In this document: positions 4,951 through 8,849 of the stretch, piece by piece
Position numbering within the stretch: position 1 is the stretch's first letter
How the letters are laid out: the number at the start of each line of letters is the position of its first letter
From: Thermoproteaceae archaeon
GTDB taxonomy: Archaea > Thermoproteota > Thermoprotei > Thermoproteales > Thermoproteaceae
Direction of reading: 5' to 3'
DNA length: 12,181 nucleotides
NCBI GenBank assembly: GCA_020833025.1
Contig: JAJHRB010000046.1
Coordinates: forward strand, 1-12,181
Program-made: the position numbers and the translations under genes
The notes under the pieces: model-generated
Databases searched by the model: none
Told to the model about the DNA's origin: nothing
What the model saw: only the letters and a program-made list of their open reading frames with translations

Positions 4951-6120
4951 GTGGACGCCGGCCGGTGCATTAGGGTAGAGGGCAGGGCCTACCTGGGCGG
5001 GCGGCTCGTGAGGGTTAGAATCGGCGCGGCTGGCTGCAAGACTCTACAGCTGCCCCGCGGCTTTCTGATACTGCCCGGCATGGTCGACATTCACGTGCAC
5101 TTCCGCGACTGGGAGCTTGCCTACAAGGAGACGCTGGAGGGCGGCGCGAGGGCGGCTCTGGCGGGAGGCGTCGTTGCCGTGGGCGACATGCCGAACGTGA
5201 AGCCCTTTATAAGGACGGCCGAGCTCTACCGCAAGAGACTGGAGGAGGGGGCCAGGCTGCCGGTGATCTACCGGCTTCACATGGGCGTGCCTGAAGACCT
5301 CAGCGAGCTTGAAAAGGCCAGGCCGCTGTCGGTCAAAGTTTACCCCGAGGACATAGAGACGTACGGGTGGGGCCACGTCGAGCGCGTGATGAAGGAGTGC
5401 GCGCGGCTGGAGTGCGCTGTGATTTTTCACTGCGAAGACCCCGCGTACTTCAGCGACGGCGAGAGGCCGCCAGAGGCCGAGCTCCGCTGCGCTGAGAGGG
5501 TGCGCGCGCTCGCAGCGCTGACCGGCGCGAGGGTTCACCTCGCTCACGTCACGCTGCCGCAGGTAGTCGAGATGTCGCGAGGGTGGGCGTCTGTTGACGT
5601 GACGCCGCACCACTTGCTTCTGGACAGCGAGAACTGCAGAGACCGCGGGCTCTGTCTCGTCAATCCCAGGCTCAGGACGCCCGAGACGCGCAAGTCTTTA
5701 CTGGCCGCGCTCGCCGCGGGGCTGGTGGACATTTACGCAACCGACCACGCCCCCCACGCTGCGCACGAGAAGCGCTCGGAGAGCCCGCCGCCGGGGGTTT
5801 GCAGCATAGAGATTGCGCTCAGCCTGCTGCTGCGCATGTGGAAGGCCGGCGTGCTGGCCCTCGAGGACGCGGTCAGGCTCTACTCGTACAGGCCGGCGCG
5901 TTTCTTGAGAGTCGACGCCGACCCGCTGAGCGGGGTCTTCACAATCGTGAGGCTTGAGGAGTTCAGAGTGCAGGGAAATGACTTCATCGGCGCGTGCAAG
6001 CTCACGCCATTTGAGGGCATGCTGGCATTCGGGAGGGTTGTGGCGACAGCAGTGGGCGGCCGGGTTTACTTCAGGGATGGCGAAATTTACGAGCTGGCCA
6101 GCGCTAGCAGGGCCGCTTAA
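4951..6120 (+). CDS. pyrC: Dihydroorotase (amidohydrolase superfamily)
   Basis: PGMVDIHVHFRD (HxH plus substrate Arg), AALAGG..V.DMPN, FHCED, HLAHVT, VTPHHL, VNPRLR and TDHAPH. Confidence 0.9.
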   Translation: MDAGRCIRVEGRAYLGGRLVRVRIGAAGCKTLQLPRGFLILPGMVDIHVHFRDWELAYKETLEGGARAALAGGVVAVGDMPNVKPFIRTAELYRKRLEEGARLPVIYRLHMGVPEDLSELEKARPLSVKVYPEDIETYGWGHVERVMKECARLECAVIFHCEDPAYFSDGERPPEAELRCAERVRALAALTGARVHLAHVTLPQVVEMSRGWASVDVTPHHLLLDSENCRDRGLCLVNPRLRTPETRKSLLAALAAGLVDIYATDHAPHAAHEKRSESPPPGVCSIEIALSLLLRMWKAGVLALEDAVRLYSYRPARFLRVDADPLSGVFTIVRLEEFRVQGNDFIGACKLTPFEGMLAFGRVVATAVGGRVYFRDGEIYELASASRAA

Positions 6121-6123
6121 ATG

Positions 6124-6131
6124 CATATAAA
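6124..6131 (+). promoter_or_regulatory. TATA box of the dsrC-like gene
   Basis: CATATAAA just after the pyrC stop, about 26-33 nt upstream of ATG 6157. Confidence 0.45.
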
Positions 6132-6156
6132 GTGCCGTAGGAGCGCGATAAATGAA

Positions 6157-6498
6157 ATGCTGATGTGCCCCGGCGCTATAGTTATCTCCGGCAGGCGTAT
6201 TGAGCTTGTCAACTGTCTGCCAAAGAACAAGGACTTGTGGAGCCCGGAAATTGCAAAGGTAATTGCCGAAATAAACGGAATTCGATTCACTGACGACATG
6301 CAGCGGGTAATAGAGCTCGTCAGGGACTTCTGGCAGAAGTATCACGTGTGCCCGCCGATGTCAATTCTAGAGCTATTGACCAAAATGAGCGGGAGCTCTA
6401 TATTGAAGATGTTCAAAAACAACTACGATATTATGTGTGTGCTCGCGGGGATAGAGCCCCCATCTGGGTGCCTCTCCAGAGTACTCTCCACAGCCTAG
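6157..6498 (+). CDS. dsrC: DsrC/TusE-family sulfur-carrier protein, divergent and C-terminally extended
   Basis: 113 aa from ATG 6157: N-terminal CPG, WSPEIAKVIA, VIELVRDFW, CPP and C-terminal C94-VLAGIEPPSG-C105 (CX10C) followed by LSRVLSTA. Confidence 0.82.
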   Translation: MLMCPGAIVISGRRIELVNCLPKNKDLWSPEIAKVIAEINGIRFTDDMQRVIELVRDFWQKYHVCPPMSILELLTKMSGSSILKMFKNNYDIMCVLAGIEPPSGCLSRVLSTA

Positions 6499-6526
6499 GA
6501 CTTAAGAGCGAGAGTCCAGGCGGGCG

Positions 6527-6570
6527 CCCCCCAGCTCCCCGCCGCCCCGGGGCGGCGGGGAGCTGGGGGG
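6527..6570. repeat. Perfect 44-bp palindrome between convergent dsrC-like and dsrK-like genes
   Basis: CCCCCCAGCTCCCCGCCGCCCC (6527-6548) is immediately followed by its exact reverse complement GGGGCGGCGGGGAGCTGGGGGG (6549-6570). Confidence 0.97.
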
Positions 6571-6593
6571 ACATAGTAGCCCTGCCAGTACTC

Positions 6594-7790
6594 CTACTCC
6601 GCGGCGGCGTAGAGGAGCTCGGCTATCCCGGTTACTCTCGCCCGCGCGCCAATTACCGCGAAGACTCTCTTGAGCTGTGCCTTGCACGTCGCGCACGGCC
6701 TAACGACGGTTCCGGCGTCGAAATTGCCATAGGCAGCCCTCCAGTACTTAGCGGCAATATCGAGCATTGCGGGCGCAATGAGCCCGCCGCCGCCGAAGCA
6801 ACACACAGATTCCTTGGGGTCTCTCCACATCTCAACGTACCGGCCCGCCAGTTCCTTGAGCAGGGCCCGGGGCTCGGTTACCAGCGGGATGCAGGACCTT
6901 GAGTAGTTGCACGGGTCCATGTACACAACCGGCTGTGCCAGCTCGACGCGTCTCAATTTCAACGTGCCTTTAAATACCGCTCTGTGCAGCAGCTGGTGCA
7001 CGTGTAACGCCGGCCTGGAAATACTGGGAACTACAAGTCGCGTGAAGACGTGCCACCCGTGCCCGCACTCGCCGAACACGACGAGCGCAGGCCTTGCTCT
7101 CTCGATCTCCTCGATGTACATCTCTGCAATCTTGTGCATGCAGCTCTCGCTTAGGTAATAGCCGTAATTCGCCGTGTCTGCAACCCTGGCGCTCACGACA
7201 GTGTCAAGCCCGAGCCTGCCTAGCAGGTAGATGTAGCCCTTCAGCGCGTCCTCAAACTCAAAAATATCAGAAGATGAGGGGAAGAGGAGCGCAGGCCTCC
7301 TGGGAGCCCCCGCATCTTGCTGCGTGTAGGCGTCGACGTAACCGCTATCCGTGCACACGAAAACCTGCGGCGCCTCGCCCCTCTCGCGCTCTATTTTTTT
7401 CACAATCGCGTGCAGCGCCAGAACTACGACCTCCTGCGGCATGCCCATGTTGTTCCCGCGCCTGAGGAAGTTCTCCACGACTCTCGCCACGTAGGGCAGG
7501 ACGCGCCCCCTCACGAAACCGCACTTCACCAGCGCGTCTCTCACTTGCCGCGTGACCTCGGCAACGTCAATGCCCAGAGGGCACGCGTAGGCACACCTCT
7601 TGCACATCGAGCACATGGAAAACAGCTCGCACAGCACGTCCTCCGGTGTCCGCGACCTCAGCAGTGACAGGCGGCCTGCCGGCGAGTAGCGCGGGTCCCC
7701 AGTTGCTACGTAAGACGGGCAGGACGCAATGCAGCTCCCGCACTGCATGCACATCAACGCGGCCAGCTTGGCGTACATTGCTGATAGCAC
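6594..7790 (-). CDS. dsrK: DsrK/HdrD-like Fe-S heterodisulfide-reductase-type catalytic subunit
   Basis: Two CX2CX2CX3CP motifs (C14-C24, C60-C70), GNNMG, FGECGH (241-244), and a CCG-type domain DPCN (C294)...CCFGGGG (C330/C331)...PCATCK (C366/C369). Start GTG 7790 or ATG 7778. Confidence 0.82.
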   Translation of the reverse strand: MLSAMYAKLAALMCMQCGSCIASCPSYVATGDPRYSPAGRLSLLRSRTPEDVLCELFSMCSMCKRCAYACPLGIDVAEVTRQVRDALVKCGFVRGRVLPYVARVVENFLRRGNNMGMPQEVVVLALHAIVKKIERERGEAPQVFVCTDSGYVDAYTQQDAGAPRRPALLFPSSSDIFEFEDALKGYIYLLGRLGLDTVVSARVADTANYGYYLSESCMHKIAEMYIEEIERARPALVVFGECGHGWHVFTRLVVPSISRPALHVHQLLHRAVFKGTLKLRRVELAQPVVYMDPCNYSRSCIPLVTEPRALLKELAGRYVEMWRDPKESVCCFGGGGLIAPAMLDIAAKYWRAAYGNFDAGTVVRPCATCKAQLKRVFAVIGARARVTGIAELLYAAAE

Positions 7791-7806
7791 AGGTGCCAGG
7801 CGCTCC

Positions 7807-7847
7807 TTTTAAGCTTGTCGGGCAGCCCCGAGAGAGACTTTTATTTT
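7807..7847. promoter_or_regulatory. Divergent promoters for the dsrK-like and dsrM-like genes
   Basis: TTAAAA on minus (7812-7807) upstream of dsrK; TTTTATTTT (7839-7847) 20-28 nt upstream of GTG 7867. Confidence 0.45.
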
Positions 7848-7866
7848 GCCGGCAGGGAAGGGTGCG

Positions 7867-8448
7867 GTGCTTGTGGCACTGTTCTGCGCCGCGCTTGCGG
7901 TTTCGCTGGCAACAGCCGGCTACAGAGCAGTCAGAGCGGCGGGGGCAGCGCCGCTCGCCGTGGCGCCTCAGAGCGTGGCGCGGCTTCTTACATTTGGCAG
8001 CATGGGCGGCACGGCGCGCGCGCTCGCGCTCGCGTTTCACGCCTCGGTCGCATTGTCGCTTGCCGGTCACGCGCTCGCGCCACTCGCGCGGGAATGCGCG
8101 TGGCCCAGCGCGCCGGCGATGCTTACTGGCATTCTCTCTCTGGCGTCTCTCGCGGCCATGAGCTTGGCGCGCCCTCGCGGCCTCCCGCCAGGGCGCGTGC
8201 TCGCGCGCGCCCTCGCAGCGCTCACCATAGCCTCTGGCACCCTCCTCCGAGTCAGTGAGTGGGCCGCCCCCGCGGCGCCGTGGCACGCACTGCTGGCGCT
8301 GCATGCTGCCAGCGCGGCCGCGCTCGCACTATCAGTGCCGTTCACGCCGATGGCGCACTTGATGTCACTGCCAGTATGCATGGTACTTAGATACAGAGAT
8401 AAGAAAATTAAGCAGAGGCTAAAACGCGCCCTCGTGGAGCTTGTATAA
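7867..8448 (+). CDS. dsrM: DsrM/NarI-like di-haem b membrane cytochrome
   Basis: About 5 hydrophobic segments; His pairs F-H-X9-H (codons 8038, 8068) and H-X17-H with PFT (LHAASAAALALSVPFTPMAH; codons 8302, 8356), the NarI/DsrM haem-ligand spacing. Start GTG 7867 by TATA spacing (TTG 7846 in the ORF track). Confidence 0.72.
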   Translation: MLVALFCAALAVSLATAGYRAVRAAGAAPLAVAPQSVARLLTFGSMGGTARALALAFHASVALSLAGHALAPLARECAWPSAPAMLTGILSLASLAAMSLARPRGLPPGRVLARALAALTIASGTLLRVSEWAAPAAPWHALLALHAASAAALALSVPFTPMAHLMSLPVCMVLRYRDKKIKQRLKRALVELV

Positions 8449-8849
8449 TGACGGCGGCCGTGAGCGCGATGAGAAAATAGGAGGTGTCTCCACGCTCCCT
8501 TTTAGCCCCTACCGCCCTCCGGAGGCCGGCGCTCCTTGCATCGAGGCGAGACTCTACCAACGGTGCGCCCGGAATGCGGCCTAGAGACGAATAGAGGCGA
8601 GGTGCCGACATTGTGGCAGTGGAGAGGTTTGACGTGTTACTCCAGATTGCCAAATTCCAATCCCTCTTTTCCTTCTCCCGAGTGTTTATCAACCCCAGCA
8701 GCGCTCCAGCGCACGGAGAGGCCGCTGCCCAGCCGCCCTCTAGGCTGCCCAGGCGCAATCTGCTTGGCTGCGCCGCCCCGCCGCCGAGCCCCCGGGCCAT
8801 CTGGACCCCCTCGTCCCACTCCTTTTTCTCCCCTCCCCTCCGGCTTCCC

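Follow-up and report, generated by a model that had tools for sequence, protein, structure and literature searches.

The 12,181-nt stretch of DNA analyzed here (the window) is contig C8 of a Pyrobaculum metagenome-assembled genome (1.56 Mb, 94% complete), and its close relatives bear Pyrobaculum names. Between pyrC (dihydroorotase, 4951-6120) and a NUDIX gene it carries three adjacent genes, for a DsrC-like protein (C), a DsrK/HdrD-like iron-sulfur protein (K, here named K4) and a NarI/DsrM-like membrane protein (M), which are referred to together as the trio (Table 1). An initial reading of the window, the first-pass annotation, had described a DsrC-like gene on the plus strand, a DsrK-like gene on the minus strand and a DsrM-like gene on the plus strand as neighbors in a non-canonical convergent/divergent layout. 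All three genes were found where it had put them. Orthologous loci were sought in 18 Pyrobaculum genomes, including that of the window, and 23 genomes of other Thermoproteales (41 in total), and an intact orthologous trio was present in 9 of the 17 other Pyrobaculum genomes. The C> <K M> order was confirmed, and 8 of these 9 loci share it. The genes around the trio are housekeeping genes, and none of those linked to it codes for a sulfurtransferase or a molybdoenzyme. Each of the three genes had also been credited with a TATA-like element of its own, and such boxes are visible by eye upstream of all three, the position of the one before the dsrC-like gene being what would fit a leaderless transcript. 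The start of the dsrC-like gene agrees with the form held in the protein collection (P0026), and the ATG at 6163 was discounted because M3 is V in related strains. For the dsrK-like gene ATG 7778 is the probable start, which yields the 394-aa form of the protein collection, and for the dsrM-like gene it is GTG 7867 or 7873, since TTG 7846 falls inside the TATA-like box.

Table 1. Features of the trio locus in the window, with examples of the inverted repeat found at orthologous loci.
Feature	Position	Strand	Remark
TATA-like box (ATATAAAG)	6125..6132	+	~29 nt upstream of dsrC-like ATG; candidate, read from the sequence
dsrC-like gene, 113 aa	6157..6498	+	CysB C94, CysA C105 (C-x10-C), then LSRVLSTA
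Perfect 44-bp GC-rich palindrome, no spacer	6527..6570		Gap between the convergent dsrC-like and dsrK-like genes
dsrK/HdrD-like Fe-S protein gene, 394 aa	6594..7778	-	Open reading frame extends to GTG 7790, 398 aa
TATA-like box (GCTTAAAAGG on - strand)	7805..7814	-	~31 nt upstream of dsrK-like ATG 7778; candidate
TATA-like box (TTTTATTTT)	7839..7847	+	24-30 nt upstream of GTG 7867/7873; candidate
NarI/DsrM-like membrane protein gene, ~193 aa	7867..8448	+	Longest open reading frame from TTG 7846, 200 aa
GTGCA-N5-TGCAC repeat, examples (loci L014-L022)	L014 2709-2723, 3688-3702; L016 1106-1120, 2713-2727; L018 1448-1462, 3037-3051		

The product of the dsrC-like gene belongs to the DsrC family, matching PF04358 at E 6.8e-11 (43 bits; cut-off 24.9). 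Against the narrower TIGR03342 subfamily model it scored 44.2 bits, below the cut-off of 53.5. It is 30% identical to the canonical DsrC of the same genome, with both redox cysteines aligned. In an AlphaFold2 model (predicted local distance difference test score, pLDDT, 86) the best eight Foldseek matches were all DsrC or TusE (TM-score 0.64-0.77), and pLDDT fell below 50 at residues 104-113, as expected for the flexible C-terminal arm. Across the 10 orthologues C94, C105, L106, S107 and V109 are invariant and the C-x10-C spacing is retained. In all 10, eight residues with the conserved pattern LSxVLSxx lie beyond CysA, which is therefore not the penultimate residue, whereas all solved DsrC proteins and all other DsrC proteins of the 41 genomes stop one residue past CysA. 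Nearly all weaker matches of the DsrC-like profile among protein representatives likewise end at CysA or one residue later. The gene has 50% G+C and a third-codon-position G+C content (GC3) of 0.66, compared with 63% for the genome, GC3 values of 0.77-0.82 for neighboring genes and 58% for the canonical dsrC.

For K4 the best NCBIfam match was DsrK (NF045796, 141 bits), ahead of TmcB (80 bits) and HmcF (61 bits). The equivalog cut-off of 400 bits was not reached, and the canonical DsrK of the genome likewise falls under it at 330 bits. In public genomes the protein is annotated only as '(Fe-S)-binding protein', and a sequence comparison with solved structures matched only HdrC-type ferredoxin domains, with no solved DsrK or HdrD. 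K4 contains two CxxCxxCxxxCP motifs ([4Fe-4S]), the motif GECGHGWH and one complete CCG domain (PF02754, 22.2 bits; cut-off 20.6). All 14 ligand cysteines (C14/17/20/24, C60/63/66/70, C294, C330/331, C366/369) are invariant in the 10 orthologues.

The NarI assignment of the M protein is the weakest leg of the identification of the trio. Among the 10 orthologues, seven matched PF02665 at E 0.1 or better (best 1.1e-5), no other family recurs, and the weak NCBIfam matches are all of NarI type (DsrM, HmcE, NarI, TmcC). The reading frame has about five transmembrane helices and four invariant histidines (H65, H75, H153, H171), spaced x9 and x17, a spacing that we take to equal that of E. coli NarI. 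When aligned with hhalign these histidines fall on the histidines of NarI-type proteins from this genome and from Vulcanisaeta, at an overall probability of only 9-17%. The AlphaFold2 model is all-helical (pLDDT 74). Taken from these features, M would be a NarI-type di-haem b protein for which haem binding and quinol oxidation are predicted. The first-pass description of three proteins that are divergent and yet keep their cofactor ligands held for the trio, the ligands being invariant in the 10 orthologues and the scores lying far below the DsrK, DsrM and DsrC/TusE-subfamily cut-offs.

A search with VIA-align returned mostly generic helical bundles for the M model, and the only match that covered nearly all of it, among the matches listed, was mycobacterial EtfD (9ojn_A; Z 8.7, 180 residues, root-mean-square deviation 7.6 A). 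EtfD (PDB 9ojn) is similar to the trio in combining NarI-type haem b and HdrD-type Fe-S/CCG modules, and an acyl-CoA dehydrogenase gene is divergent from the dsrC-like gene in 5 of the 10 loci. K and M might on these grounds be an EtfD-like oxidoreductase between electron-transfer flavoprotein (ETF) and quinone, serving acyl-CoA dehydrogenases. However, the structural match is a weak one that lies within helical-bundle noise, and the window has no acyl-CoA dehydrogenase gene at this position; nor, to judge by how little space separates pyrC from the dsrC-like gene, do P. neutrophilum and P. arsenaticum. No co-variation of ETF genes with the trio was seen: they occur equally in genomes without it (P. 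aerophilum and one that we take to be P. calidifontis) and were not found in the window's 94% complete genome. Furthermore, EtfD is a single fused protein that receives electrons from ETF, whereas the trio consists of separate K and M genes with a tightly linked DsrC-like gene, which this explanation leaves unaccounted for; it was considered very improbable. Where the acyl-CoA dehydrogenase gene is present (L033 6616-7761, with the same position in L034-L037), it lies between pyrC and the dsrC-like gene and is strongly conserved, at 64-94% identity.

The relationship of the trio to the canonical dsr genes was resolved by a search of the genome. Contig C24 carries a NarI-like/dsrM gene, dsrA, dsrB and a canonical dsrC (118 bits to TIGR03342), together with dsrM/dsrK, the DsrK of which is the 330-bit protein mentioned above, and another DsrK paralog (236 bits). 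Contig C65 bears a fourth gene of the DsrK family. With canonical dsrM-dsrA-dsrB-dsrC and dsrMK present on C24, the trio is therefore, as the first-pass annotation had proposed, a paralogous set and not the genome's sole copies. In a K tree whose sample was confined to 32 Thermoproteales DsrK-family proteins and six remote relatives from the protein search, K4 and its nine orthologues, which are 53-62% identical to it, fell outside the canonical clade and formed a separate clade with 100% support on a stem of 1.23 changes per site. Its sister (support 98) was a clade of the other Thermoproteales DsrK-type proteins, which includes the nearest outgroup, a tandem pair of Vulcanisaeta (narI-like, then K) that adjoins a tetrapyrrole methylase gene and a CobB/DsrN-like gene. 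Among solved structures the best relative of the DsrC-like profile was P. aerophilum DsrC at 70 bits, with bacterial DsrC at 39 or less, which points to a duplication inside the lineage and not to import. Up to four or five distinct classes of DsrK-family paralog were seen in Pyrobaculum genomes (G000 C24, G005, G007). A 552-aa form stands beside dsrAB in the window's genome and in P. islandicum, and a form of about 490 aa is found instead in P. arsenaticum.

The three genes are tightly linked and, in the genomes searched, were found in only part of the genus. Neither the trio nor K4 orthologues were found in the 23 other Thermoproteales genomes searched. Strong full-length matches to the DsrC-like profile (185-205 bits) occurred in exactly the ten Pyrobaculum genomes that bear K4 (10/18), and every other DsrC of those genomes scored 75 bits or less. 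Among 1.84 billion protein representatives at 50% identity, only one full-length cluster fitted the profile, and its representative is the window protein. A scan of the collection with the single K protein as query found no locus, and an alignment-based query found six. C, K and M are adjacent in 10 of 10 genomes, and synteny confirmed the divergent arrangement of K and M in the window and in all nine orthologous loci. In eight of the nine, the 3' ends of C and K share 4-9 nt; P. islandicum has its C gene relocated to the far side of M, which this gene still adjoins. The named carriers are P. islandicum, P. neutrophilum, P. arsenaticum and Pyrobaculum sp. (P. yellowstonensis) WP30. The trio was not found in P. 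aerophilum (G012, identified by a DsrC one residue off PDB 1JI8), nor in the genomes that we take to be those of P. calidifontis and P. oguniense. This distribution, with the trio in obligate anaerobes that use sulfur compounds and missing in facultative aerobes, is suggestive, but the division is not strict.

The genes are also under purifying selection. For the two closest pairs that were unsaturated, the ratio of nonsynonymous to synonymous substitution rates (dN/dS) was 0.09-0.10 for C, 0.13-0.19 for K and 0.31-0.35 for M, so that no value of the trio approached 1 and relaxed selection was not seen. The part of the window with the trio was also present in contigs of four hot-spring metagenome runs from two studies, in which the strain differences listed were mostly synonymous (K 13:6, C 6:4) and the cysteine codons were intact.

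The occurrence of the trio was compared with that of dsrA across the 18 Pyrobaculum genomes. Seven have both (G000, G004, G005, G006, G007, G011, G016), three have the trio and no intact dsrA (G003, G013, G015), six have dsrA and no trio (G001, G002, G008, G009, G012, G017), and two genomes, 61-74% complete, have neither (G010, G014). G015 is the complete genome of Pyrobaculum sp. WP30 and G013 is 98% complete, and the trio is intact in both. In these two genomes no dsrA match was obtained at E 0.001 or better, dsrB gave only weak ferredoxin-domain matches, and neither a canonical DsrC nor any other DsrK-family gene was found. G003 has an intact trio, a dsrB split over two frames (C1:96246-97674) and no intact dsrA that could be found. 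The dsr locus of G003 looks to be decaying beside an intact canonical dsrC and DsrK, although an assembly error is possible. For respiration WP30 uses elemental sulfur or arsenate (Jay et al. 2015, as cited in PMC8579995 and PMC12794621). The suggestion of the first-pass annotation that the module takes its input from a source other than DsrAB is strongly supported by the intact trio in WP30 and G013, which lack dsrAB. Because the trio also occurs in species without sulfite reductase, it probably serves a different sulfur or disulfide reaction than the DsrAB pathway.

It was also considered that the DsrC-like protein might be an alternative DsrC pool that DsrAB still uses, perhaps when conditions differ or through the second DsrAB copy of some Pyrobaculum. 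Such a role would agree with the retention of both redox cysteines and with the presence of dsrAB in 7 of the 10 genomes that bear the trio. However, the trio is intact in WP30 and G013 as well as in G003 with its split dsrB, and the C-terminal end of the protein speaks against it. In structures of DsrAB with DsrC the arm inserts into the DsrAB cleft and brings the penultimate cysteine to the sirohaem. The change in the DsrC-like protein sits exactly where DsrC enters DsrAB, and an internal CysA would therefore be expected to fit poorly. The motifs flanking the arm are also altered: the DiSCo motif for functional DsrC, AGLPKPTG(not N)CA, permits at most one difference, whereas the window sequence AGIEPPSGCL has five differences from AGLPKPTGCA (PMC8477390). 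Continued service to DsrAB was therefore judged improbable.

The intergenic regions of the orthologous loci contain an inverted repeat, GTGCA-N5-TGCAC, with an AT-rich spacer, located just upstream of the C promoter and again in the interval that separates the K promoter from the divergent M promoter. P. islandicum and P. neutrophilum, whose genomes are complete, have no perfect copy other than that at the K/M site. The sharing of this repeat points to co-regulation of the three transcription units. A palindromic operator in both promoters raised the further possibility that the DsrC-like protein is itself a redox-sensing DNA-binding regulator, an RspA-like use of the DsrC helix-turn-helix, which binds the repeat and controls K and M. 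After the DsrC structures, the fold search did return LexA winged-helix matches over about 46 residues. The repeat is missing from the window's own promoters, however, and a strictly conserved cysteine pair beside a CCG-type reductase is more in keeping with a substrate than with a regulator; a regulatory role of this kind appears highly unlikely. Near-matches to the operator in the window's genome lie in coding regions or have GC-rich spacers (e.g., C65:7018). Between the two TATA-like boxes of the K/M region, at about 7822-7835, the window has TCGGG-N4-CCCGA. A degenerate operator pattern, RTGYWWWWWWTRCAY, was no commoner than its reversed control in five genomes, and no regulon was defined with it. 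In P. arsenaticum a near-perfect repeat (GTGCTAAATATGCAC; L070 1501-1515, G005, C1:1096631-1096645) lies between two divergent TusA-family genes and adjoins a dsrB-like gene of a dsr locus. The TusA genes of four other genomes are without the repeat, and the P. arsenaticum site is an unconfirmed lead that may be due to chance.

The 95-nt gap between C and K in the window is occupied by the palindrome listed in Table 1, the only copy in the genome, which may act as a bidirectional terminator or an RNA-stabilizing hairpin. As the C and K genes overlap in 8 of the 9 orthologous loci, the spacer that bears it is specific to the window's lineage. The palindrome is present in the four metagenome runs of the two studies, and contigs break at it.

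Taken together, these observations favor the interpretation that the trio is a quinol-linked reductase, formed by the NarI-like and DsrK-like proteins, of a dedicated DsrC-like disulfide or trisulfide that is loaded independently of DsrAB (a probability of about 0.6). It would be a membrane-anchored and self-contained unit of thiol/disulfide redox chemistry, produced within Pyrobaculum by duplication of crenarchaeal dsrC and dsrMK. The small NarI-type di-haem b protein would take up electrons from the quinol pool and pass them to the peripheral DsrK-like protein, with its two [4Fe-4S] clusters and one CCG-domain catalytic cluster. The latter would then reduce the oxidized DsrC-like protein, either a CysA-CysB disulfide or a trisulfide, with release of sulfide where sulfane sulfur is bound. 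The carrier would not be loaded by DsrAB but most plausibly by cytoplasmic sulfane sulfur, in the form of persulfide or polysulfide that stems from elemental sulfur or thiosulfate. The analysis established the paralogy, the conservation of all ligands, purifying selection, the tight linkage of the genes and their occurrence without DsrAB; in which direction electrons flow, what the substrate is and where the sulfur comes from are inferred. Only tentatively can this be taken further, to a complete DsrAB-independent, protein-based sulfur reductase in which sulfane sulfur is carried on the extended DsrC-like arm and sulfide release is driven by quinol.

The proposed reductase can be placed among known systems. 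DsrABCMK is the minimal archaeal set and is that of Thermoproteales (Neukirchen, Pereira and Sousa 2023, PMC10504309). The trio resembles its DsrC and DsrMK components in having a DsrC-fold Cys-x10-Cys carrier, a DsrK-type protein with two [4Fe-4S] motifs, one complete CCG domain and GECGH, and a NarI-type protein with four histidines. It differs in that it is unlinked to dsrAB and present in genomes without it, that its carrier runs for eight residues past CysA instead of one, and that its K and M genes are divergent, not tandem and co-oriented. Its proteins also score far below the cut-offs that define DsrK, DsrM and the DsrC/TusE subfamily, and its M protein, at about 193 aa, is shorter than the other M copies of the genome (257-303 aa). 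HdrDE of methanogens and the Hme/Tmc/Hmc pairs of CCG protein and cytochrome b share the arrangement of a membrane di-haem b protein with a peripheral ferredoxin/CCG protein that reduces a disulfide with electrons from a quinone-like carrier. HdrD, however, has two complete CCG domains and K4 has one, and the substrate of the trio would presumably be a protein, the DsrC-like carrier, and not the heterodisulfide CoM-S-S-CoB. A DsrC fold without DsrAB is known from TusE and other DsrC-family proteins of organisms lacking DsrAB. TusE, which acts with TusBCD and MnmA in the bacterial sulfur relay for tRNA thiolation, has only CysA, in the penultimate position, whereas the trio carrier keeps both cysteines, is extended at its C terminus and has a CCG reductase gene linked to its own. 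Text searches of the literature turned up no discussion of the module or of a C-terminally extended DsrC.

An explanation that differs from this reductase mainly in physiological role, and not in chemistry, is that the trio is a general membrane disulfide reductase for redox homeostasis, in which the DsrC-like protein would be a dithiol shuttle of thioredoxin-like kind and not a respiratory sulfur carrier, repairing disulfides or persulfides of proteins or low-molecular-weight compounds in sulfur stress. HdrDE-type enzymes have the same architecture, the housekeeping neighborhood offers no sulfurtransferase or molybdoenzyme gene, and the trio is absent from at least one genome of what we take to be a sulfur-respiring species. 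Against it stand the strict retention of the C-x10-C arm, a hallmark of sulfur-carrying DsrC, and the lifestyle of the named species with the trio, all of them obligate anaerobes living on sulfur compounds. A homeostatic role is accordingly rated as unlikely.

Several points nevertheless weigh against a quinol-linked reductase loaded independently of DsrAB. Both the biochemical reaction and the sulfur donor to the DsrC-like carrier are proposals. That the C-terminal extension would hamper DsrAB binding is argued by analogy with the known DsrAB-DsrC structures. The window's own M protein matched PF02665 at just 17.4 bits (cut-off 22.9; E 0.0035), with a similarly weak match to HmcE (E 0.0066), and Foldseek gave no match to its model at E 0.001 or better, NarI appearing at ranks 42 and 49 (TM-score 0.37-0.43). 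The promoters of the window are without the GTGCA-N5-TGCAC operator of the orthologous loci. A search for RNA runs with positions 6100-8500 of the window found none, the matches being only to hot-spring DNA metagenome contigs. Finally, the genome taken as that of P. oguniense, a species reported to respire sulfur, is without the trio, which can therefore not be a requirement for respiring sulfur.

In the accepted view of dissimilatory sulfite reduction and sulfur oxidation, DsrAB has DsrC and DsrMK as its invariable partners, and the handling of the DsrC trisulfide by DsrMK is still only partly understood. The trio represents a natural split, in which purifying selection maintains a DsrC-type carrier and a DsrMK-type reductase in archaea without sulfite reductase. 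If the interpretation is correct, the trio would provide a simple three-protein system in which to study CCG-cluster chemistry on a protein disulfide or trisulfide. It would also call for caution in metagenome surveys that take dsrC, dsrM or dsrK matches as markers of sulfite reduction. For hyperthermophiles it would mean a new electron-acceptor pathway for sulfur compounds. Were the trio indeed a complete sulfur reductase, the more tentative reading, DsrC/DsrMK chemistry would be seen to operate apart from sulfite reduction, and strictly anaerobic species of Pyrobaculum would have a way to conserve energy by respiring sulfur that is separate from the molybdoenzyme sulfur and polysulfide reductases facing the periplasm.

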